This document shows, piece by piece, positions 1 to 23,666 of a stretch of 64,000 bases of DNA. The position numbers and the translations under genes were made by a program. Source of the DNA: an uncultured SAR86 cluster bacterium (GTDB lineage Bacteria > Pseudomonadota > Gammaproteobacteria > Magnimaribacterales > D2472). The first letter of the stretch is position 1. Each line of letters opens with the position of its first letter. A model generated the notes under the pieces. It ran no database searches. It saw only the letters and a list, made by a program, of their open reading frames with translations, and was not told where the DNA came from. The stretch is taken from assembly GCA_902509965.1 (NCBI GenBank), contig CABWZP010000003.1, positions 5,819 through 69,818 of the forward strand, read 5' to 3'.

Positions 1-33
1 AAAAAGCATAATTTATAAAACTGTTCAATTATG

Positions 34-63
34 TTGACAGTATTGCTCCTAGGAGCTTAGAAT
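34..63 (+). promoter_or_regulatory. sigma70 promoter of the ribosomal protein cluster
   Basis: TTGACA (34-39), 18-nt spacer, TAGAAT (58-63), then a GC-richer discriminator ACGCCAC; 64 nt upstream of rpsJ. Confidence 0.75.
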
Positions 64-127
64 ACGCCACATTTTGCAATTAGCAGAGTGTGAAAATAAA
101 AGAATTAATAGGTAATAATTAGTAAAA

Positions 128-439
128 ATGGATAATCAATCAATAAGAATTAGGCTAAAAGCATTTGATTATAGATTGATTGATGCCTCTACAAAATTAA
201 TTGTAGAAACTGTTAAAAAGACAGGTGCATTAGTAAGAGGCCCAATCCCATTACCAGTTAAGAAAGAGAGAACAACTATATTGACCTCACCGCATAAAGA
301 TAAAGATGCTAGAGATCAATATGAGATAGTTACATATAAGAGACTTATGGATATTGTTGAGCCAACTGATAAGACAGTTGATGCATTAATGAAATTAGAT
401 CTATCTGCTGGGGTAGATGTCCAAATAAGTCTTGGTTAG
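128..439 (+). CDS. rpsJ: 30S ribosomal protein S10
   Basis: [14 protein letters not shown]...GPIPLP...[13 protein letters not shown]. Confidence 0.99.
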
Positions 440-450
440 TAAATAATTTT

Positions 451-489
451 TAACGCTTAGGCGGCCATAGAGGGTTAGTAGCCCCGTAA
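451..489 (+). promoter_or_regulatory. putative cis-regulatory RNA resembling 23S rRNA helices 18-20 (L4/L24 site)
   Basis: GC-rich island TAACGCTTAGGCGGCCATAGAGGGTTAGTAGCCCCGTAA in an AT-rich spacer; two small hairpins; immediately upstream of the rplC SD. Confidence 0.65.
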
Positions 490-502
490 AAAGGAGAGTA
501 AA

Positions 503-1138
503 TTGAGCACTGGCTTAATAGGAAAAAAATCTGGAATGTCCCGACTTTTTTTAGAAGACGGAACTTCTATTCCTGTAACGGTAATTTCAGTATCTGGTAA
601 TTTCATTGCTGATATTAAGACTTCTGATAGAGATGGGTACGATGCCCTTGTAGTCTCTAAAACAAAAAAATCAAATAATCTAACAAAATCAACTACTGAA
701 TTCTTTAAGAAGGTTAATCTTGAGCCTGGAAAGTTAGCTGAATTTAGAACAGATGCTAAAAATGCTGCCGAATATCAAATAGGCAATCATCTAACAGCTG
801 ATGTATTTGAAACTGGACAATATGTAGATATAACTGGAACTTCTAAAGGTAAAGGTTATGCAGGCGTTATTAAGCGCCATAATTTTGCAATGCAAGATGC
901 AACACACGGTAACTCACTTTCACACAGAGCTCACGGTTCTATTGGTCAATGCCAAACTCCGGGAAGAGTTTGGAAAGGCAAGAAGATGTCAGGCCACATG
1001 GGTAATGCAACCACTACTGTGCAAAGTTTAAAAATTGTTGAATTGGATCTTGAAAACAGCGTTCTTTATGTAAAGGGAGCAGTTCCAGGATTTAACGGAT
1101 CAGATTTGAAAATTAAACCATCACTCAAGAAAAAATGA
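503..1138 (+). CDS. rplC: 50S ribosomal protein L3 (TTG start)
   Basis: GLIGKKSGM, GTSKGKGYAGVIKRHNF, HGNSLSHRAHGSIGQCQTPGRV; SD AGGAG. Confidence 0.99.
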   Translation: MSTGLIGKKSGMSRLFLEDGTSIPVTVISVSGNFIADIKTSDRDGYDALVVSKTKKSNNLTKSTTEFFKKVNLEPGKLAEFRTDAKNAAEYQIGNHLTADVFETGQYVDITGTSKGKGYAGVIKRHNFAMQDATHGNSLSHRAHGSIGQCQTPGRVWKGKKMSGHMGNATTTVQSLKIVELDLENSVLYVKGAVPGFNGSDLKIKPSLKKK

Positions 1139-1746
1139 AGATAGATTTACTAACAACATCTACAAAAAAATCAGATATTACTATTTCTGAAACCACTTTT
1201 GGTAAAGATTTTAATGAGTCATTAGTTCATCAGGCTGTTGTAAGCTACATGGCTGGGTCAAGACAAGGATCCTCCAAACAAAAAACACGTTCTGAAGTAA
1301 GAGGTGGTGGTAAAAAGCCATACAGACAAAAAGGAACAGGTAGGGCTAGAGCTGGAACAATAAGAAGTCCTTTATGGAGAGGTGGTGGAGTTACATTTGC
1401 TTCAACTCCAAGAGACTACAGTAAAAAAATTAATAAGAAAATGTACAGAGCTGCATTAAGATCTATCTTCTCTGAATTATTAAGACAAGGTAAATTGGTA
1501 GCTATAGAAACACCTGTATTAGAAAAACCAAAAACTAAAGAAATAGCAAAATTTCTAAGCGATTTTTCATTAAGCAAGGTTTTATTTATTACTGATACTT
1601 TTGACTCTAATTTTTATCTTTCTGCCAGAAATATCCCAAATGTGGACGTTATTACCGTCAAAGAGATAAACCCAGTAATTTTATTAAGAGCAGACAAGGT
1701 TGCTGTGACTGCAGAAGCATTTAAATTAATTGAGGAGTGGATCTAA
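1135..1746 (+). CDS. rplD: 50S ribosomal protein L4
   Basis: KTRSEVRGGGKKPYRQKGTGRARAG. Confidence 0.99.
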   Translation: MKIDLLTTSTKKSDITISETTFGKDFNESLVHQAVVSYMAGSRQGSSKQKTRSEVRGGGKKPYRQKGTGRARAGTIRSPLWRGGGVTFASTPRDYSKKINKKMYRAALRSIFSELLRQGKLVAIETPVLEKPKTKEIAKFLSDFSLSKVLFITDTFDSNFYLSARNIPNVDVITVKEINPVILLRADKVAVTAEAFKLIEEWI

Positions 1747-2042
1747 TGTTAAATGAAAAACTCTATACCTTAATTAAGGCCCCGATAGTTACTGAAAAAT
1801 CTGCACGGGTGAATGAAGCACATAAGCAGGTAGTTTTTAAAGTTGACCTTAATGCTAACAAAAGGGAAATAAAACAAGCTGTTGAAGAGCTTTTTAAAGT
1901 TGAAGTTTTATCAGTTACAACTTCAGTTGTAAAAGGAAAAACAAAAAGAAATCGAACAGGAACTTATAAAAGATCTAATTATAAAAAAGCTTTTGTAACT
2001 TTGAGTCAAGATTCTGAAATTCAATTTGAGGGAATAAATTAA
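1746..2042 (+). CDS. rplW: 50S ribosomal protein L23 (start moved to ATG 1746, TAATG overlap)
   Basis: APIVTEKS...[24 protein letters not shown]...KKAFVTL. Confidence 0.97.
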
Positions 2043-2043
2043 A

Positions 2044-2871
2044 ATGACTATTGTTAAGGCAAAGCCTACCAGTCCAGCCAGAAGGCATGTCATATCAGTA
2101 AAATCTGATTTACATAAAGGTAAGCCTTTTAAGGCATTACTCCAACCTAAATCTAAAAATGGTGGAAGAAATAATAATGGTCGAATTACTGTTCGCCATC
2201 AAGGCGGCGGACATAAACAACACTACAGAGTTATAGATTTTAAAAGAGATAAATTAGAAATACCGGCAATAGTAGAAACTATCGAATATGACCCAAACAG
2301 AACTGCACATATCGCATTATTAAAATATAAAGATGGAGAAAGAAAATATATTATAGCTCCTGCAAAGTTAAAGGTTGGTGATGAAGTAATATCTTCAGAT
2401 TCAGCTGATATTAAAACTGGTAACTCAATGAAACTTAAAGATATACCTCTTGGTACAAATGTTCATTGTATTGAATTAAAACCATTAAAAGGTGCTCAAC
2501 TTGCAAGAAGTGCTGGTACTTCAGCTAGGCTAATTGCAAAAGAAGGTATTTACGCAACTCTCAGACTTCAGTCTGGTGAAACTAGAAAAGTTTTATCGGA
2601 TTGCAGAGCGACTTTAGGAACTGTTTGCAATAGTGAACATAATCTTAGGTCTCTTGGAAAAGCTGGTGCTAAAAGATGGAGAGGAGTTAGACCTACTGTT
2701 AGAGGTGTTGCTATGAATCCAGTTGATCATCCTCATGGTGGGGGTGAAGGTAGAACTTCTGGAGGTCGGCATCCATCTACTCCATGGGGCGTTCCTACAA
2801 AAGGATACAAAACAAGAAAGAACAAGAGAACTAATGATTTAATAATCAGAAGAAAAGGAAGCAGGAAGTAA
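2044..2871 (+). CDS. rplB: 50S ribosomal protein L2
   Basis: [36 protein letters not shown]. Confidence 0.99.
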
Positions 2872-2874
2872 ATT

Positions 2875-3147
2875 ATGCCAAGATCACTAAAAAAAGGCCC
2901 ATTTATAGATCTTTCATTAGAAAAGAAAGTTGATGCAGCCAATGCATCTAATGATAAAAGACCTATTAAAACTTGGTCAAGAAGATCAATGGTAATGCCG
3001 TCAATGGTTGGACTTACGATTGCAGTTCACAACGGAAGACAACATATCCCAGTCTATATTAATGAAGATATGGTTGGACACAAACTGGGCGAATTTGCAG
3101 TTACAAGAACATTTAAAATGCATTCAGGCGATAGGAAAAGTAAATAA
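2875..3147 (+). CDS. rpsS: 30S ribosomal protein S19
   Basis: [12 protein letters not shown]...MVGHKLGEF. Confidence 0.99.
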
Positions 3148-3485
3148 TGGAAACAAGAGCATATCTAAAAGGAACTAGATTATCTCCGCAAAAAGCTGGG
3201 TTAGTGGCTAATGCTGTTAGAGGTAAGTCAGTTCAGGATGCAATGGATTTCTTAATATTTAATAAGCAAAAAGGATCTGCTGTTATTAAAAAGTTATTAG
3301 AATCAGCTATTGCTAATGCTGAGAATAATGAAAAAGCTGATATCGATCTATTGGTTATAAAATCAATAATTGTTAATCAAGGAATGAGATTAAAACGTAT
3401 GAAGCCTCGTGCAAGAGGTAGAGCAGATAGGATAATAAAACCTACATGCCATATTGAAATCATACTTACTGATCAGGAGAAATAA
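3147..3485 (+). CDS. rplV: 50S ribosomal protein L22
   Basis: [18 protein letters not shown]. Confidence 0.99.
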
Positions 3486-4138
3486 TGGGACAAAAAGTAC
3501 ACCCAAATGGTTTTAGATTAGGAGTTGTTAAGAAGCACAATGCAAATTGGTATGCTAAAGGTAAAGCTTTTTCAGAAAATGTTGTTCAGGATCTCAAAGT
3601 TAGAGAGTATTTCAAAAAAAGATTAAAGTTTTCTTCAGTAAGCAAGATTGAACTTGAGAGGTCTGCTGATAATTTTGTAGTTTTCATTCATACCTCTAGA
3701 CCGGGAATTATTATCGGTAAAAGAGGAGAAGAAATTGAAAACCTTAAAAAAGCAGTTGAAAAAATTGTTGGCCAGCCTACACAAATAAATATTAAAGAAG
3801 TTAAGAAGCCTGATTTAGACGCAACAATTTTAGCTGAAGGGGTCGCACAACAGCTAGAAAGAAGAGTTATGTTTAGAAGAGCAATGAAAAGAACAGTCCA
3901 AAGTGCATTAAGACAAAGTGCTAAGGGAGTTAGGATTGAAGTTTCTGGAAGATTAAATGGAGCTGAGATAGCTAGAACTGAATGGTACAGAGAGGGGAGA
4001 GTTCCTCTCCATACATTAAGGGCAGATATTGATTACGGTACGGCTGAAGCTTTAACTACATATGGAATTATTGGAGTAAAGGTTTGGGTGTTTAAGGGCG
4101 AAGTAATGGGCGATCCATTTAAACAAGAAGATAAATAA
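3485..4138 (+). CDS. rpsC: 30S ribosomal protein S3
   Basis: [27 protein letters not shown]. Confidence 0.99.
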
Positions 4139-4149
4139 AATTAAATATT

Positions 4150-4557
4150 ATGTTACAACCAAAACAAACAAAATTTAGAAAAATGCATAAGGGCAGAAAT
4201 AGAGGCTTAGCTCAAAATGGTAATACTGTTGCATTTGGAAGATTTGGTCTAGTTGCTGCTGATAGAGGAAGAATTACAGCACGTCAAATTGAAGCTGCAA
4301 GGCGAGCAATGACTAGACATATTAAAAGAGGCGGTAATATTTGGATTAGATTATTTCCTGATAAACCAATTACAAAAAAACCTCTTGAGGTAAGAATGGG
4401 AAAAGGTAAAGGAAATGTTGAGTATTGGGTAGCATTAGTTCAACCAGGCAAGGTTATGTTTGAGATGGCTGGTGTTACTGAAGAGCTTGCAAGAGAAGCA
4501 TTTAAATTAGCTTCTGCGAAGTTGCCTGTAAAAACTCGTTTCTTAAAGAAGGATTAA
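4150..4557 (+). CDS. rplP: 50S ribosomal protein L16
   Basis: [25 protein letters not shown]. Confidence 0.99.
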
Positions 4558-4561
4558 TAAT

Positions 4562-4768
4562 ATGAGCAAAGAATTAATAGACCTAAGAAAAAAAGATTTA
4601 GACCAACTTAATCAAGAATTAGCATCTGTTAGAGCTGAGCAATTTACTATGCGCATCAAACATAAAACTGGCCAACTTAACGAAACAAATCTTTTAAAAA
4701 ATACTAGAAAAAAAATAGCAAGAATTAAGACTCTAATTACAGAGACAAAGAATAAGGAAGTTAAATAA
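4562..4768 (+). CDS. rpmC: 50S ribosomal protein L29
   Basis: [10 protein letters not shown]; position in operon. Confidence 0.97.
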
Positions 4769-5067
4769 TGACATCTTCAAATCCAAGACTACTTACAGGA
4801 GTTGTAATATCTGATAAAGCGGATAAAACAATAACAGTGAAGGTTGAAAGAAAAGTGAGACATCCGCTCTATGGAAAAATAATGAAGCGTACAACAAAAG
4901 TACATGCCCATGATGAAAGCAATGATGCAAGTATTGGAGACATAGTAACTGTCAAAGAATGTCGACCTATTTCTAAAAATAAGACTTGGGTCTTGGTTAC
5001 CAATCAAGAGATAGAAGCAGCAAATACTGAAGTGAATGCTAATGAATCTCAAGAGGAGACAGTGTAA
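4768..5067 (+). CDS. rpsQ: 30S ribosomal protein S17 with acidic C-terminal tail
   Basis: [31 protein letters not shown]. Confidence 0.99.
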
Positions 5068-5435
5068 TGATACAAATGCAGACTATTCTTAAGATAGCAG
5101 ATAATAGCGGCGCTAGAAGTGTTATGTGCATAAAAGTTCTTGGTGGTTCTAAAAGACGTTATGCCAATATTGGCGATATTATTAAAGTAGCTGTTCGTGA
5201 AGCTATTCCAACTGGCAAAGTTAAAAAGGGTCAGGTTGTGGATGCCCTTATTGTTAGAACTAAAAAAGGTGTGAGACGCAGAGATGGGTCATTAATTAAA
5301 TTTGATGAAAACGCAGCAGTCTTATTAAACAATCAGAAAGCTCCAATAGGAACTAGGGTATTTGGCCCTGTTACTAGAGAGCTTAGAGATGGAAGCTATA
5401 TGAAGATTCTATCCTTAGCCCCAGAAGTTTTATAA
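5067..5435 (+). CDS. rplN: 50S ribosomal protein L14
   Basis: MIQMQT..ADNSGA...SLAPEVL. Confidence 0.99.
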
Positions 5436-5773
5436 TGAATAATTTAGTAAAAACAAATACAAAACTTAAAACTGGCGATGAAGTAATTGTCATCACTGGA
5501 AAAGATATTGGCAAAAAAGGCAATATTAGAAAAATTATGAAGAGTAATAATAGGGCAATTGTTACTGGAATCAATATGGTAAAAAAGCATACTAAGCCCA
5601 ATCCCCAAATGGGAGTTGCTGGTGGAATCGTTGAGCAAGAAGCAGCTATTGATCTATCCAATGTATCTATTTGGAACCCTAAAACGAAAGGCGCAGACAA
5701 GATAAAGTATTCAAAAGATAAAGATGGAAAAAAAATAAGATTATTTAAGTCTAATGACGCGGAAATTAAGTAG
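5435..5773 (+). CDS. rplX: 50S ribosomal protein L24
   Basis: [31 protein letters not shown]. Confidence 0.99.
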
Positions 5774-6313
5774 ATGGCTAATTTAAAACAAAAATTTAAC
5801 AAAGAAATGGTTCCTGCTTTACAGGAAAAGCTTGGAATGAATAATGTTATGGCTGTTCCTAGGCTTAAAAAAGTTGTTATCAATATGGGAGTTGGACAGG
5901 CTTTAACTGATAAAAAACACTTAACATCTGCAGTTGCAGATTTAGAGTCTATAGCAGGTCAAAAAGTTGTAACTACTAAAGCAAGAAAATCAGTTGCTAG
6001 CTTTAAAATTAGAGAAGGATATCCAATAGGCTGCAAGGTAACTCTTAGAGGAGAGCGAATGTATGATTTCATTGAAAGGCTTATTAACATCGCTATACCT
6101 AGAGAAAGGGATTTTAGAGGATTAAATCCTAAGTCTTTCGATGGCCAAGGTAATTATAGTTTTGGGATCAAAGAGCAAATAATATTTCCAGAAATAAATT
6201 ACGACAACATAGATAATATTAGAGGTATGGATATCTGCATAAATACCTCAGCTAACACAAAGGAAGAAGCTAAAGCTTTACTAGAAGTTTTAGAATTCCC
6301 ATTTAAGAAGTAG
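5774..6313 (+). CDS. rplE: 50S ribosomal protein L5
   Basis: [24 protein letters not shown]. Confidence 0.99.
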
Positions 6314-6322
6314 GTAAAATAA

Positions 6323-6628
6323 ATGGCTAAAAAATCAATGATCGCAAGAGAAGTCAAAAGAAAAAAGACTGTAGCTAAATATGCTGCTAAAAAAGCAGAG
6401 CTTAAAGCTACATTTATGAATTTGAATGCAAGTGATGAGGAAAGGTCTGATGCTTATAAAAAGCTTCAGAAGCTTCCAAGAAATGCAAGCGCCTCAAGAG
6501 TAGTAAGAAGATGTTCAATAACTGGAAGACCACATGCCGTCTATAGAAAGTTTGGCCTTAGCCGAATTAAGCTTAGAGAGGCTGCCATGAGAGGCGATAT
6601 TCCAGGTTTAGTTAAATCAAGTTGGTAA
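6323..6628 (+). CDS. rpsN: 30S ribosomal protein S14 (long, non-zinc-ribbon type)
   Basis: [10 protein letters not shown]...[20 protein letters not shown]...KSSW; 101 aa. Confidence 0.99.
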
Positions 6629-6632
6629 TAAT

Positions 6633-7031
6633 ATGAGTTTTCAAGATCCTATATCAGATTGTCTAACAAGAATTCGGAACGGCCTTATGCGTGGCAAGGA
6701 TGAAGTTTCTGCACCTTATTCAAAAGTTAAACATGAACTAGTTAATGTTTTGGTAAGTGAAGGTTATCTTAAGAGCTGTAAAAAAGTCGAAGAAGCAAAT
6801 AATAAAGCTTCTATTAGTATCACTTTAAAATATTTTAATGAAAAACCTGCTATTAAAAATATTAAAAGAATTAGCAAACCAAGTTTAAGAAGATATTCTG
6901 GGCCTGAAGACTTAAAACCTGTTAAAAATGGTTTAGGAGCCTATATTATCTCTACTAACCAGGGGCTTATGACCGATAAACAAGCTAAAGTAAAAAATAT
7001 CGGAGGAGAAGTCCTTTGTGAGGTATTTTAA
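6633..7031 (+). CDS. rpsH: 30S ribosomal protein S8
   Basis: DPISDCLTRIRNG...GGEVLCEV. Confidence 0.99.
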   Translation: MSFQDPISDCLTRIRNGLMRGKDEVSAPYSKVKHELVNVLVSEGYLKSCKKVEEANNKASISITLKYFNEKPAIKNIKRISKPSLRRYSGPEDLKPVKNGLGAYIISTNQGLMTDKQAKVKNIGGEVLCEVF

Positions 7032-7033
7032 TT

Positions 7034-7573
7034 ATGTCTAGAGTAGCAAAAAACCCAATAACACTTCCTGATTCAGTAAAGGTGAATATCGAAAATTCCA
7101 ATATTCAAGTTTCTGGTACTAAAGGTACATTAGATTTTCAATTACCTCAATCAGTTTCATTGAAACAAGAAGAGAATGTTATTACTGTTCAGTACGGAGA
7201 TTCTCAAGAGTCTGTTGCGCTAGCTGGAACAACCCGTGCATTAATTAATAATATGGTTATTGGTGTTTCTGAAGGGTTTCAAAAAAAATTACAATTGGTT
7301 GGAGTTGGATATAGAGCTAAAGCATCCGGAAAGTTATTAGAATTAAGTCTTGGATTCTCTCATCCTGTTAAGTATCAATTGCCTGATGAAGTTAGTGTAG
7401 AGACTCCATCTCAAACAGAAGTCGTTTTAAGTAGTCATAACAAACAAGCCTTAGGCCAAGCTGCTGCAGAGATTAGAGCATTTAGACCTCCTGAACCATA
7501 TAAAGGTAAAGGCGTAAAATATGCCGATGAAGTTATCAAGAGAAAAGAAGCTAAGAAGGCAGCAGGAGCATAG
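7034..7573 (+). CDS. rplF: 50S ribosomal protein L6
   Basis: MSRVAKNP, RPPEPYKGKGV. Confidence 0.99.
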   Translation: MSRVAKNPITLPDSVKVNIENSNIQVSGTKGTLDFQLPQSVSLKQEENVITVQYGDSQESVALAGTTRALINNMVIGVSEGFQKKLQLVGVGYRAKASGKLLELSLGFSHPVKYQLPDEVSVETPSQTEVVLSSHNKQALGQAAAEIRAFRPPEPYKGKGVKYADEVIKRKEAKKAAGA

Positions 7574-7575
7574 TT

Positions 7576-7923
7576 ATGAGTGAAAAGAATATTTCAAGAA
7601 TAAGACGAGCTAAAAAAACTCGAATGAAGATTAGAGAACAAGAAGCTCCAAGACTAAGTGTTTATAGATCTTCAAAGAATTTTTATGTTCAGTTGTTTGA
7701 TAGTTTGGGTTCTAAAGTCATAGCCTCTGCATCTACTATAGAAAAAGAAGCTAAATCAAAAAATAATAATGTAGAAAGTGCAAAAGATTTAGGAAAAAAA
7801 ATTGCGGAAAGAGCACTAGAAAATGGTATCAAGAAAGTTGTTTTTGATAGATCTGGATATAAATACCATGGTCGCATCAAAGCGCTTGCAGATTCTGCCA
7901 GAGAAGCTGGCTTGGAGTTTTAA
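7576..7923 (+). CDS. rplR: 50S ribosomal protein L18
   Basis: FDRSGYKYHGRIKALADSAREAGLEF. Confidence 0.99.
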   Translation: MSEKNISRIRRAKKTRMKIREQEAPRLSVYRSSKNFYVQLFDSLGSKVIASASTIEKEAKSKNNNVESAKDLGKKIAERALENGIKKVVFDRSGYKYHGRIKALADSAREAGLEF

Positions 7924-7929
7924 TTAAAT

Positions 7930-8442
7930 ATGAAACAAGAAAATTTAAATACTGCTGGTCAACAACAAGATGCTCTCGAAGAGAAGCTTGTTCAGGTTAA
8001 TAGGGTTGCTAAAGTAGTTAAAGGTGGAAGAATCTTTGGTTTTACTGCTCTTACAGTTGTTGGAGATGGTAAAGGTAAAGTAGGTTTTGGAAGAGGTAAG
8101 GCTAAAGAGGTTCCAATCGCCATTCAAAAAGCTATGGAAAATGCTAGAAGAAGCATGATAGATGTTGAGTTAAATAACACCACTCTATGGTACCCAATTA
8201 AAGCTAAACATAACTCTGCAAATGTTTACATGCAACCTGCATCAGAAGGAACAGGAATCATTGCAGGTGGTGCCATGAGAGCAGTGCTAGAGCTAGCAGG
8301 TGTTCAAAATGTTCTAGCCAAATGTTATGGATCAACTAATCCTGTGAATGTAGTTAGAGCAACCATTAATGCACTTAGTTCCATGGAGTCTCCTAAAACA
8401 GTTGCATTAAGGCGTGGTAAATCATCAGAAGAAGAGTTATGA
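7930..8442 (+). CDS. rpsE: 30S ribosomal protein S5
   Basis: [20 protein letters not shown]. Confidence 0.99.
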
Positions 8443-8627
8443 GTAAAGAAAAAACATTAAAAGTAAAACTTATTAAAAGCGGCATTGGCAGAATGGAGTC
8501 TCATAAACTTTGTATAAAAGGACTAGGCTTTAAAAAATTGAATCAAACCGTAACTATAGTTGATACACCAAGTAATAGAGGCATGGTAAATAAGATATCA
8601 GATATGGTTGAGGTAATGGAAAGTTAA
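8439..8627 (+). CDS. rpmD: 50S ribosomal protein L30
   Basis: KSGIGR...GLG...[12 protein letters not shown]. Confidence 0.97.
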
Positions 8628-8629
8628 AA

Positions 8630-9079
8630 ATGACAGAAGAAAATACAAATAATTTAGCTCTTAACACTTTATCAAATCCTGGAACTGTTCAAAACAGAAA
8701 AAGGGTTGGGAGAGGTATTGGCTCTGGAACTGGTAAGACGGCAGGAAGAGGGCACAAAGGACAAAAATCAAGATCTGGTGGAAATGTTAGACCTGGATTT
8801 GAGGGCGGACAAATGCCTTTACAGCAAAGAGTTCCTAAATTCGGATTTTCCTCAAGAACAAATAATCTACTTAAAGATGTCAATGTAAAGTTACTCGAAG
8901 GTATGTCAGAAGTTTCACTAGAAACACTTAAGCAAAATAAGATTATCAGCAAAAAAATTGAGAAAGTAAAAATATATGGCAATACAGAATTATCATCAAA
9001 AATAAATGTTATTGGTATTAAGGTTACTAAAGGAGCTAGGGAATCTATTGAGAAAGCCGGAGGGTCCATACAGGAATAA
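8630..9079 (+). CDS. rplO: 50S ribosomal protein L15
   Basis: RVGRGIGSGTGKTAGRGHKGQKSRSG, GFEGGQMPL. Confidence 0.99.
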   Translation: MTEENTNNLALNTLSNPGTVQNRKRVGRGIGSGTGKTAGRGHKGQKSRSGGNVRPGFEGGQMPLQQRVPKFGFSSRTNNLLKDVNVKLLEGMSEVSLETLKQNKIISKKIEKVKIYGNTELSSKINVIGIKVTKGARESIEKAGGSIQE

Positions 9080-9082
9080 ATA

Positions 9083-10378
9083 ATGTCTGACCAAGGAAAA
9101 GGTATGAGCGATTTATGGAGAAGGTTACGATTTGTATTCGTAGCTATACTTGTATATCGTCTAGGCACACATATTCCAATACCAGGAATTGATCCTGACA
9201 GGCTATCCTCTTTGTTCGAACAGAATCAGGGAACACTTTTAGACATGTTTAATTTGTTCTCCGGTGGAGCTCTAGAGAGAATGAGTATTTTTGCTCTTAA
9301 TGTTGTGCCTTACATTTCTTCGGCAATCATCATGCAATTATTTTCAAACTCAATACCTTATCTCCAAGAGTTAAAAAAAGATGGCCAAGCTGGAAGAAAT
9401 CAAATTACTCAGTACACAAGATATGGGACAGTTGTATTAGCTTTTGTTCAGGCATCAGCCTTAGCTGTAACATTAAGCGGTAGCGGCCTTGCTTATACCC
9501 CTGGCGCTGCTTTCTTTGCTTCTGCAGTATTTTCAGTAGTAGCTGGAACAGTATTTTTAATGTGGCTTGGTGAGCAAATATCAGAAAGAGGCATAGGTAA
9601 TGGAATATCTCTTATTATTGCTACAAGTATATTAACAGGAATACCTGGAGCAATTGGCCAGGCTCTCGAACAATCAAGACAAGGTGATTTAAATATTTTA
9701 TTACTACTTGCAATTGCTGTTCTAGCTATGGCAGTTATTGCAGTCGTCGTTTTTATTGAAAGAGGGCAAAGAAGAATCACAGTTAATTATGCTCAAAGAC
9801 AGCAAGGTAGAAAATTAATGCAAGCTCAATCTAGCCACTTACCTTTTAAAGTAAACATGGCAGGAGTCATTCCGGCAATCTTTGCGAGCACTTTCTTACT
9901 GTTTCCTGCTTCATTAGCATCGTGGTTTGGTCAAAGCGAAGGTACGAATTTCTTGCAAACGGCTTCATTAGCTCTTACACCTGGACAGCCTTTGTATATT
10001 TTAGTTTTCTCTGCCCTAATTATTTCATTTTGTTTTATTTGGTTAGCTCTGACTTTTAATACCAGGGAAGTTTCAGATAATCTCAAAAGGTCTGGAGCAT
10101 ATATTGCAGGTATAAGACCAGGTGAACAAACAGCCCAATATATTGATAGTGTTTTAGCTCGATTAACAGTATTTGGAGCTATTTATTTAACATTAATTTG
10201 TTTATTACCATTGGCATTGATAAATTTTGCAGGCGTCTCTTTTTATTTTGGAGGAACCTCTGTTCTAATTATTGTTGTTGTTTTAATGGATTTTATTGCT
10301 CAAGTTCAATCACATATGATGTCGAGTCAATATTCATCCTTAATGAAAAAAGCTAATTTAAAAAACTATAAAAGATAA
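9083..10378 (+). CDS. secY: preprotein translocase subunit SecY
   Basis: [36 protein letters not shown]; about 10 TM segments. Confidence 0.99.
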
Positions 10379-10379
10379 T

Positions 10380-10496
10380 ATGAAAGTAAGAGCATCTGTA
10401 AAAAAAATATGTAGAAACTGCAAAACAGTTAGGCGCAATGGCGTTTTATTTGTTATTTGTAAAACTGACCCTAAACACAAACAAAGGCAAGGATAG
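10380..10496 (+). CDS. rpmJ: 50S ribosomal protein L36 (zinc-ribbon type; not in ORF track)
   Basis: Manual translation [38 protein letters not shown]. Confidence 0.98.
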
Positions 10497-10499
10497 ATT

Positions 10500-10856
10500 A
10501 TGGCAAGAATCGCGGGTGTTAATATCCCAGAAAATAAGCACGTTGAAATATCTCTAACTCATGTTTTTGGTATTGGTAGAAAAACAGCTCAAGATATATG
10601 CACTGGTCTTAAAATAGACTATACAAGAAGAGTTTCTGACCTAACTGAAGATGAAGTAGAAAAAATAAGAACGGCTGTAGCAACTTATGCTGTAGAGGGT
10701 GATTTAAGAAGAAACATTAGTACAAACATTAAAAGGTTGATGGATTTAGGTAGTTATAGAGGAATTAGGCATAGAAGAAAGCTTCCTACAAGAGGGCAAA
10801 GAACTAAAACTAATGCAAGAACACGCAAAGGTGCAAAAAAACCAATGAGAGGTTAA
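10500..10856 (+). CDS. rpsM: 30S ribosomal protein S13
   Basis: [24 protein letters not shown]. Confidence 0.99.
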
Positions 10857-10860
10857 TTGA

Positions 10861-11238
10861 ATGGCAGTAAAAGGTAAAAAATCAAAAAAAGTTGTTACGG
10901 AAGGCGTTGCGCATATTCAGTCTTCTTTTAACAATACTATTGTTACTATTACAGACAAGCAGGGTAATACTGTTTGTTGGGCAACTTCTGGCGGCTCTGG
11001 TTTTAAAGGGTCAAGAAAAAGCACTCCTTTTGCAGCACAGATAGCTGCTGAAAAAGCAGGAAGTGCAGCAAAAGAATTTGGCATGATTAATTTAGATGTA
11101 AAAGTAAAGGGACCAGGTGGTGGAAGAGAGTCTGCAATAAGATCTCTAAACGCATGTGGATTAAAAATAAAGAGCATAACTGATGTTACGCCTCTTCCTC
11201 ATAATGGATGCAGACCATCCAAGAAAAGAAGGGTTTAA
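10861..11238 (+). CDS. rpsK: 30S ribosomal protein S11
   Basis: [32 protein letters not shown]. Confidence 0.99.
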
Positions 11239-11248
11239 GGAGATTTAA

Positions 11249-11872
11249 ATGGCAAGATATAGAGGACCATCTTTAAGATTATCGAGAAGAGAAGGCACTG
11301 ACCTATTTCTCAAAAGTGGCGTAAGAGCTATTGAATCAAAATGCAATATGGAATCACCTCCAGGTGCTGCTCAAGGCGCTAGAAGAGGAAGATTATCTGA
11401 TTACGGATTGCAGTTAAGAGAAAAGCAGAAAGTTAGAAGAATGTATGGAGTTCTAGAAAAGCAATTTAGAAATTACTATAAAAAAGCTGCATCAACCAAA
11501 GGAAATACAGGTGAAAACTTATTATCACTATTAGAACAGAGACTTGATAATGTTGTGTATAGACTTGGTTTTGGATGTACTCGAGCAGAGGCAAGGCAAA
11601 TGGTTTCTCATAAAGCATTTACTGTTAATGGAACAACTGTAAATATTCCATCTTATCAAGTTCAAGCAGGAGACGAAATAGCGGTAAGAGAATCAAAAAA
11701 AGGCCATTTAAGAATACATGCTGCTCTTAAATTAGCGGCATCTAGAGAAGTATGTGACTGGGTAGAAGTTGATGATAAGAATTTAAAGGGTGTATTTAGA
11801 AATGTTCCAGATAGAACTGAGCTAAGTACAGAAATTAATGAAAACTTAATTGTTGAGCTTTATTCTAAATAA
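11249..11872 (+). CDS. rpsD: 30S ribosomal protein S4
   Basis: [33 protein letters not shown]. Confidence 0.99.
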
Positions 11873-11902
11873 CAATATTTTTTAAAAGAAAAGAGGGAAA
11901 TT

Positions 11903-12868
11903 ATGCAAACATCAGTAATCGATTTATTAGTACCATCAGATATTCAAGTAGATGATGAGGGAATTAATGTATCCAAGGTAACACTAGAACCGCTAGAAAG
12001 AGGTTTTGGACACACCCTAGGTAATGCATTAAGAAGAATTTTACTATCATCAATGCCAGGAGCAGCTGTTACGGATGCAACCATAGATGGTGTTGCTCAT
12101 GAATACAGTACTATAGAAGGTGTAAGAGAGGATGTTATCGATATTCTCTTAAACCTCAAAGATCTTCCAGTGAAGATAATTGAAGGAACATCAGCAACTT
12201 TGGAATTAGATATAGCTGGACCTTGTGAAGTATCAGCAGCATCTTTTCAGGTTCCAGGTAATGTTGAGCTTGTAGATGCAGATCATCACATAGCTACCAT
12301 TGTTGATAAAGTATCTTTGAAGATGTCTGTTACTGTAAAAACAGGAAGAGGCTATGAACCAGCAGACGCAAGGGATGAGGAAGATACATCAATTGGCGCT
12401 TTAAAAGTAGATGCTTCTTTTAGTCCTGTTAGAAGAGTTGCATATTCAATAGATAATGCAAGATTTGAAAAAAGAACAGACTTAGATAAGCTGATTATAG
12501 AGCTAGAAACGGATGGAACTATTGACCCTAAGATGGCAATTGAACATTGTGCGACTATTCTTCAACAGCAATTAGCTTCATTTGTAGATTTAGATGCTAT
12601 TGCCGAACAAGAAGCTAAGAAAGATCAAAATGATTTTGATCCTTTACTTTTAAGATCGATTGAAGAGCTTGAATTAACAGTAAGATCAACAAACTGTCTA
12701 AAAGCTGAAAGCATTTTCCTTATTGGAGATTTAATTCATAGATCAGAATTTGATTTATTAAAAACCCCAAATCTTGGAAAAAAATCATTAAATGAAATAA
12801 AAGATGTTCTTGCATCTAAAGGCTTATCACTAGGAATGGTGGTAGAGAACTGGCCTCCATTAGGTTAA
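11903..12868 (+). CDS. rpoA: RNA polymerase alpha subunit
   Basis: [36 protein letters not shown]. Confidence 0.99.
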
Positions 12869-12874
12869 ATAAAT

Positions 12875-13291
12875 ATGCGACATAGAAAAGCAGGTAGAAA
12901 ATTAAATAGAAATTCTTCTCACAGAAAGGCTTTGCTTAAAAACCTTTCCATTGCATTGATTGAAAGAGAAATTATTAGGACAACTCTTGCAAAAGCAAAA
13001 GAGTTAAGGATGACAATTGAACCACTAATAACTCTTGCTAAAGAAGATACTGTTGCAAACAGAAGACTTGCCTTTAATAGATTGAGATCAGATGAAGCAG
13101 TAGGTAAGCTTTTTACTTCTGTTGCTGTTAATGCAAAAGATAGAAAAGGTGGTTATACAAGAATTATCAAAGCTGGATTTAGACCTGGGGATAAAGCTGA
13201 TATGGCTTATATAGAGTTAGTCGATAGAGTTGAAGATTCTGCTAACGATGAATCGTCAACACCAGAACTAAAAGAAGATAGCGCAGCTTAA
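12875..13291 (+). CDS. rplQ: 50S ribosomal protein L17
   Basis: [26 protein letters not shown]. Confidence 0.99.
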
Positions 13292-23317: not shown

Positions 23318-23666
23318 TGGTGGAGGCGGCGGGAATTGAACCCGCGTCCGCTAATCCTTCAGCCTAACTTCTACATGCATAGCTCACCCAATTAGCTTTT
23401 TAACTTTTGTGACCCGAGGAGCAGGGTACTAAAGCGAGCTTGATTAAGTTTAACCAAACTGTGTCCAAGCAACACAACTTGGCTAGACTATGTAATTTGC
23501 CGATGCTTCAAACCATAGTCAATTTTTGCATCGGTTAGCATTAAGCTGCTAAAGCGTAGTTGTCGTTATTTGCAACTAAATTTTTTGTAGTATGTTTTAC
23601 AAGAATTACCACAATCTTGGCATGCGCTTCGGAGTCCAGTAGAAACGTCGAACCCTGTTCGCCCCC
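23318..23666 (-). ncRNA. ssrA: tmRNA; tag peptide ANNDNYALAA* (23573-23541)
   Basis: 5' GGGGGCGAACAGGGTTCGACG and 3' GCGGGTTCAATTCCCGCCGCCTCCACCA form an Ala-type acceptor stem with G3-U; tag ends YALAA; next to smpB; TATAAT at 23687-23682. Confidence 0.97.

Follow-up and report, generated by a model that had tools for sequence, protein, structure and literature searches.

In Escherichia coli the ribosomal protein uL4 is the autogenous regulator of the S10 operon and acts via a leader upstream of rpsJ, as described in passages of PMC3616713 and PMC10931766. According to the same passages the range of this E. coli-type S10 leader is narrow and comprises the Enterobacteria, Vibrio, Haemophilus and some Moraxellaceae, and one passage of PMC10931766 reports that the E. 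coli uL4 site is not conserved in Pseudomonas. A survey of ribosomal leaders published in 2020 gives, in its relevant section, an L4 candidate only in Archaeoglobi (PMC7247131). Within 23S rRNA the junction formed by helices 18 to 20 (H18–H20) is described in part of PMC6426284 as specifically interacting with only uL4 and uL24 and as being clamped and cooperatively bound by both, in agreement with a preliminary description of the DNA studied here, which had named helices 18–20 as the L4/L24 contact region.

Based on the analysis of a 64-kb stretch of DNA, hereafter called the window, we found that the spacer separating rpsJ from rplC contains a shortened copy of the three-way junction H18/H19/H20 of 23S rRNA. 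The window begins with the S10-spc-alpha ribosomal-protein cluster, rpsJ to rplQ, as seen from open reading frames and from Pfam matches for all 28 genes. The genes of interest are all on the + strand. The open reading frame of rpsJ (ribosomal protein S10; 128..439, Pfam Ribosomal_S10, E 8e-31) has its stop codon at 437–439, upstream of the element, and is therefore outside the presumed reach of the latter. Directly behind the element lies rplC (L3; 503..1138, Pfam Ribosomal_L3), an open reading frame with a TTG start, followed by rplD (L4; 1135..1746, Pfam Ribosomal_L4, E 2e-71), the ATG of which overlaps the rplC stop codon by 4 nt (ATGA), allowing translational coupling. At 1737–1746 the end of rplD is overlapped for 10 nt by rplW, which apparently starts with GTG. 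Further downstream, rplX (L24; 5435..5773, Pfam ribosomal_L24 plus KOW) is joined to its neighbours by junctions of −1 and 0 nt and belongs to the same gap-free gene chain as rplC. Among the 27 junctions of the 13-kb cluster, 25 are overlapping or measure 11 nt or less, the exceptions being rpsD–rpoA with 30 nt and rpsJ–rplC, whose 63-nt spacer (440..502) is the largest gap of the cluster. From rplC to rplQ (503–13291) there are 27 nearly gap-free genes, 25 for ribosomal proteins together with secY and rpoA, with 25/26 internal junctions overlapping or of at most 11 nt.

Upstream of rpsJ a promoter-like site (TTGACA, 18 nt, TAGAAT; 34..63, + strand) was found by a consensus scan with 11/12 hexamer matches, and this consensus match suggests that transcription of rpsJ and the spacer starts there. 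No terminator-like site was present in window 1–502, and the only one within 1–1200 was located at 863–878, inside rplC. The spacer is covered by contigs from four marine RNA libraries belonging to four studies; these contigs may contain DNA and give no transcript ends, strand or expression level. In three of the four libraries a single contig bridges the spacer, with flanks of no less than 31 nt at either end (X1, from 55 to beyond 1300; X15, 298–1155; X16, 410–540), which does not prove a single transcript. The fourth, X5, consists of two overlapping pieces (127–463 and 434–1155) that reach only 24 nt and 6 nt past one spacer edge and were not counted as bridging.

When the whole window was searched against Rfam 15 at the gathering threshold, the only match was a tmRNA gene (23318–23666, − strand, 174.9 bits). 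As this search of the window reported no E. coli-type S8 or S4 operator, the one at rpsJ–rplC is perhaps the sole RNA operator of the cluster. With relaxed thresholds, window 1–700 (E up to 10) and 11 loci of a fuller type described below (E up to 1) gave only chance matches to microRNAs or snoRNAs; the comparison with the ribosomal leaders of Rfam, as proposed in the preliminary description, thus yielded no Rfam 15 family that matches the element. Our full-text literature search, limited to texts outside subscription journals and supplements, found no description of an rpsJ–rplC element, and the element appears to be previously undescribed.

The element is a GC-rich island of 37 nt at 452–488 with the sequence AACGC-TTAG-GCG-GCCATAGA-GGG-TTAGTAG-CCC-CGTA. 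Its GC content is 57%, compared to 33% in the whole window and 15% in the remaining spacer, and a 29-mer taken from it occurs once in the window and in 0/100 shuffles. Two short stems are possible, CGC/GCG (454–456 with 461–463) and GGG/CCC (472–474 with 483–485). The element ends with GTA at 488 and abuts the rplC ribosome binding site, with a gap of 3 nt before AGGAG at 492–496 and the TTG of rplC at 503. The sequence, both hairpins and the TTG start were as previously written, and the distance to the Shine-Dalgarno sequence lies within the 2–3 nt given there, while what had been called a 39-mer measures 37 nt.

Alignment with 23S rRNA and with relatives was used to assign the parts, all on the + strand; in total 82 unique elements were parsed, 43 belonging to the window's type and 39 to the fuller one. 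The UUU at 448–450 could serve as the weak 5′ strand of a closing helix that resembles H18, and it is followed by the junction strand UAA (451–453), the counterpart of GAA in 23S, with AA invariant in 71/71 aligned elements. An H19-like mini-hairpin, CGC-UUAG-GCG, was placed at 454..463 by the alignment to 23S; it retains the three basal pairs of 23S H19, and the upper stem and the UGGAAA loop are gone. The three pairs are formed in 100% of the 71 sequences, some variants being compensated, and the loop is variable in both sequence and length among the aligned relatives. At window position 460 one base of this loop is absent in two contigs of one marine RNA library (depth 80 of 340), which is a natural strain variant at a place where different species differ as well. 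The next junction strand, GCCAUAGA at 464..471, is the counterpart of the H19–H20 strand of 23S, which reads GCCATAGT in the organism's own 23S, and its GCCATAG is identical in 80/82 unique elements with L154 and L155 as exceptions. Both exceptions are rare members of the fuller type: in L154 the first H19-like pair has changed from C-G to U-A in a compensated manner and in L155 GCCAUAG has become GCCGUAG, and the two variants mark positions that tolerate change. The H20-like hairpin GGG-UUAGUAG(C)-CCC occupies 472..485; GGG and CCCC are invariant in 71/71 sequences, and the loop of 5–8 nt has a conserved first base U, a variable middle and a conserved AG at its end. GUA at 486–488 is the 3′ junction strand as in 23S, with GT invariant and A nearly so, and the A run at 489–492 is a possible 3′ strand of the weak closing helix. 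In the Shine-Dalgarno sequence AGGAG of rplC (492..496) the bases GGAG are unchanged throughout an alignment of 16 distinct spacers from the family, and the AGGAG motif is 0–5 nt away from GUA among relatives of the window's type.

The likeness to 23S rRNA was determined with a covariance model, R1, made from 21 distinct spacer elements of relatives only and having 38 positions with two 3-bp hairpins. On the whole 1.08-Mb genome R1 gave the element 62.1 bits, and the second-best match (21.3 bits, E about 0.02) was H19–H20 of the organism's own 23S rRNA at G000:C34:4279-4321, about nt 293–335 of that gene and on a different contig from the element; the third match reached 13.7 bits. The alignment to the own 23S spans the full length of the model and treats the upper H19 as an insertion. 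In two other genomes with both the element and an assembled 23S gene the second-best match was also this 23S site (27.5 and 26.2 bits). When R1 was applied to 150 other families of the class, one genome each, 29/29 places examined were that 23S site as judged by their flanks, with 24 lower-scoring places left out of the examination. The window element is identical to a same-class 23S at 29/36 aligned positions and to the own 23S at 24/36, and one element of the fuller type agrees with a same-class 23S at 42/49 positions in an ungapped alignment. The genome-wide match and these identities bear out the earlier view of a near-literal mimic of 23S H19–H20. One correction to that view is that the consensus 23S of the class resembles the element more than the own 23S does.

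The fuller element equals nt 295–343 of E. coli 23S rRNA, numbered from the annotated start, which we take to be the minimal fragment. This stretch of E. coli 23S is made up of GUG, the 5′ strand of the H18 top (nt 295–297), GAA (298–300), H19 (301–316), the junction strand (317–324), H20 (325–337), GUA (338–340) and CAC, the 3′ strand of the H18 top (341–343). The element of the window corresponds to nt 298–340 with H19 reduced to three basal pairs.

The own 23S (L001 4060–4102, − strand) has itself drifted at H20, with AGG...CCT and not GGG...CCC, and at H19, and the mRNA copy retains the class-consensus bases where the own 23S has drifted. On the 23S of other class members the model scored up to 34.6 bits, compared to 21.3 bits on the own 23S. 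We also considered that a variable junction base might track the own 23S; the two agree in only one of the three genomes readable for both and the idea was therefore dropped. The possibility that the element is a 23S gene or fragment is refuted by its single copy per genome, its S10/L3 flanks and its truncated H19.

In the family of the window the element was present at 19/19 loci from 10 genera, the own genome included, within spacers of 49–65 nt. At these loci the junction strands are invariant, the loops variable, and AGGAG is followed by a TTG start (TTG in 19/19). The exact motif GCCATAGAGGG-N3-9-CCCCGTA was found once per genome in 113/139 family genomes, many of which are incomplete, and its reversed control gave 0 matches in the family genomes. 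In three sister families of the same order the exact motif was absent (0/127 genomes), and 11/11 loci examined there, a 12th genome being left out, had a spacer of −2 to 11 nt and no element, indicating that the element is dispensable.

Among the matches listed in a scan of all species, 36/37 were located at rpsJ–rplC, and the remaining one was a 23S gene. At least 23 of the matches listed were of the window's type, in records labelled as gammaproteobacterial single-cell genomes and MAGs, and at least 13 were of the fuller type, with labels such as Halioglobus, Spongiibacteraceae, Pseudohongiellaceae, Bermanella, Oceaniserpentilla, Thalassolituus and others. Elements of the fuller type have the order GUG-UAA-(H19-like stem, 3–8 pairs)-GCCAUAG(A/C/U)-GGG-loop-CCCC-GUA-CAC, followed by 2–6 nt, GAGG and AUG, and from GUG to CAC they equal 23S nt 295–343. 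In some copies the H19 loop is rRNA-like, UGGAAU or UGAAAU compared to UGGAAA in 23S. In the order that holds Oceaniserpentilla, 29/29 newly examined top-scoring loci were rpsJ–rplC spacers of 83–182 nt. A strict pattern, counted irrespective of its genomic context, occurred exactly once in 129/401 genomes of this order, many of them 5.8–7.4 Mb in size, and the reversed control gave 0 matches in the 401 genomes. When the class was sampled evenly (401 genomes from 240 families), spacer matches were confined to the window's family and a single other family, two further matches being 23S genes; the element is thus common in some lineages and not class-wide. The preliminary description had mentioned a similar spacer in Pseudomonas and a possibly widespread leader class, and the wide occurrence in a second order that includes 5.8–7.4-Mb genomes fits the remark on Pseudomonas.

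Many spacers of the fuller type (L163, L159, L161, L164, L149 and others) carry a GC-rich hairpin with a U-rich run, for example CAGGG-TTCG-CCCTG and then TTTTTGTGT. This hairpin and U run end at the 5′ strand of the closing helix and resemble a leaky terminator after rpsJ.

Across the 82 unique variants the junction strands are constant while the loops vary. The H19-like pairs 1–3 hardly change, the exceptions being four variants with compensation or a wobble pair, and in the fuller type pair 4 forms in 34/35 elements (five pair types) and pair 5 in 32/32 (four pair types). When the 39 fuller elements were aligned with MAFFT, the H19-like helix showed 96.9% pairing, with changes on both sides in 5/6 pairs; its covariation score of 0.120, compared to 0.054 in shuffles, was reached by 0/500 shuffles, and sliding the H19-like partners lowered the pairing to 24–67%. 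In 71 elements the closing helix changes from G-C/U-A/G-C (GUG/CAC) in the fuller type to mostly U-A/U-A/U-A (UUU/AAA) in the window's type. Compensatory changes therefore support the H19-like and the closing helices, and the H20-like GGG/CCC, as it never varies, is uninformative on covariation. Conservation and covariation, for which the preliminary description had proposed to look, were accordingly both found, in 19/19 loci and in the H19-like score.

Minimum-energy folds contained the H19-like hairpin in 34/43 elements of the window's type and 28/39 of the fuller type, the H20-like hairpin in 34/43 and 31/39, and the closing helix in 2/43 and 27/39, respectively. With two 3-bp stems and a closing helix in 2/43 predicted folds, the window's version consists of two marginal mini-hairpins that probably need a partner to stay folded. 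Taken alone, the spacer had an ordinary folding energy (z = 0.38). We also examined whether the closing helix extends into the Shine-Dalgarno sequence; this extension was only 53.5% paired, and we therefore make no claim for it.

From the mimicry with its conservation and covariation, the position of the element and the packing of the genes, we infer that the element is reasonably likely to be a translational operator that acts autogenously and mimics rRNA, its binding, ligand, repression and coupling all being predicted. It is located in an untranslated spacer of the operon that encodes the presumed ligand, before rplC–rplD and with rplX in the same chain, and it resembles the rRNA site of that ligand, as the second-best genome match of R1 was 23S H19–H20. 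The ligand would be uL4, alone or with uL24, a reading that we somewhat favour. The mRNA element copies the core of the H18/H19/H20 junction, where uL4 and uL24 have their primary binding site on rRNA, and uL4 that is free and in excess of free 23S rRNA would bind this copy, perhaps with uL24 as cooperative partner. The bound protein would fold and clamp the two marginal mini-hairpins, which end 3 nt before the rplC Shine-Dalgarno sequence, and the clamped hairpins would hinder 30S binding at an already weak TTG start. As the genes from rplC and rplD onwards overlap or lie end to end, translational coupling would carry the repression from rplC via rplD to the genes downstream, and rpsJ would stay free. 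Several observations count against the operator reading: the version in the window has only two 3-bp stems, its closing helix is rarely predicted and the spacer folds with ordinary energy, 12/36 aligned positions differ from the own 23S, the variable junction base fails to follow that 23S, and the three sister families lack the element.

The protein uL24 is an initiator of 50S assembly, and we know of no uL24-dependent operator. It is rather unlikely, in our view, that the same mechanism has uL24 as its sole or main binder, in which case the operator would report free uL24 and not free uL4. Passages of PMC6426284 describe a larger number of close contacts with the H18–H20 fragment for uL24 than for uL4, and a stronger stabilisation, and uL24 would also regulate itself, because rplX lies in the gap-free chain behind the element. 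However, the element stands directly before rplC–rplD but 4.9 kb upstream of rplX, and uL24, again in the passages seen in PMC6426284, binds two strands that continue into H18, whereas the H18-like helix has decayed to weak U-A pairs in the window's type. A 2024 review, in the section concerned, names uL4 as the regulator of the S10 operon.

We consider it quite unlikely that the rRNA-like fold serves another role in the mRNA, either as a processing or stability determinant that sets the S10:L3 ratio or as a landing site of an assembly factor for a uL4–uL24–RNA complex. Such a role would be in line with the DEAD-box helicase SrmB, which according to part of PMC2770661 complexes with L4, L24 and this rRNA region, and the GC-rich hairpin and U run often found just upstream of the fuller element hint at separate control of rpsJ and rplC. 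A stability element, however, needs no base-for-base copy of three junction strands across two orders, and the RNA contigs, which cannot show ends, contain no visible ends or joints. It is highly improbable that the element is a remnant without function, left by a piece of 23S rDNA that had been copied into the spacer. In favour of such a relic, the fuller type comes near to an unaltered copy of nt 295–343 of 23S, in some cases with an rRNA-like H19 loop. Against it, the element is retained in streamlined 1-Mb genomes whose other cluster gaps are 11 nt or less apart from the 30-nt rpsD–rpoA gap, its junction strands do not vary across 82 variants in which the loops and stems show compensated changes, and its distance to the Shine-Dalgarno sequence is maintained (0–5 nt among relatives of the window's type).

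The autogenous operator that responds to uL4 can be extended to a broader picture, which we regard as doubtful. In this extension uL4 and uL24 would bind the mRNA copy jointly, and the element would thereby sense the earliest step of 50S assembly through two proteins, one operator would set the translation of the whole 27-gene chain from rplC, and the element would have arisen by a copy of rDNA into the operon, giving an operator type of a Pseudomonas-like order and the window's family that is separate from the E. coli-type S10 leader.

For S10 operon control outside the group of Enterobacteria, Vibrio and Haemophilus, the element is a concrete candidate in two groups, a large gammaproteobacterial order (strict motif in about a third of 401 genomes) and an abundant streamlined marine family. 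The rRNA mimicry is unusually literal, with a uL4/uL24 site naturally trimmed to 37 nt, and as this trimming marks the bases that matter, the element may offer a minimal model for early 50S assembly and RNA–protein recognition. It would also add a family that is absent from Rfam. The element is most likely an rRNA-mimic autogenous operator, with predicted regulation, that is unusual in its internal position, in being a literal rRNA copy and in having two possible cooperative ligands.

Features common to the element and 23S H18–H20 itself (E. coli nt 281–359; core 295–343) are H20, the basal part of H19, the uppermost part of H18 and the strands of the junction; the element differs by being single copy, in an mRNA and rRNA-like over at most 49 nt, with only 3 pairs of H19 in the window. 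The candidate L4 leader of Archaeoglobi (Eckert and Weinberg 2020) is likewise situated upstream of rplC-rplD-rplW-rplB and was assigned to L4, but it is archaeal and rated as uncertain by its authors, as far as the relevant part of PMC7247131 states, and it did not match the window or the 11 fuller loci in Rfam. The S8 operator of spc and the S7 operator of str are similar in being internal to a polycistronic mRNA, in imitating an rRNA site and in acting downstream by coupling, as given in part of PMC10931766. They differ in their ligands, rRNA sites and RNA families, and in that the upstream genes would escape control here.

The E. coli-type L4-interacting S10 leader shares with the element the operon, the imitated rRNA site and a presumed competition of mRNA and 23S for uL4. 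That leader, however, precedes rpsJ, comprises five hairpins and works both by NusA-dependent attenuation and on translation, whereas the element lies after rpsJ in a spacer with no terminator-like site. A leader of the E. coli type was itself rejected for this locus, since the element at 452–488 follows rpsJ and window 1–502 has no attenuator hairpin with a U run. The element copies rRNA in sequence and secondary structure, unlike the E. coli leader, for which Stelzl et al. 2003 are said to have found a likeness to rRNA only in three dimensions. Furthermore, it occurs in lineages where passages of PMC10931766 and PMC3616713 report the E. coli-type site as not conserved.
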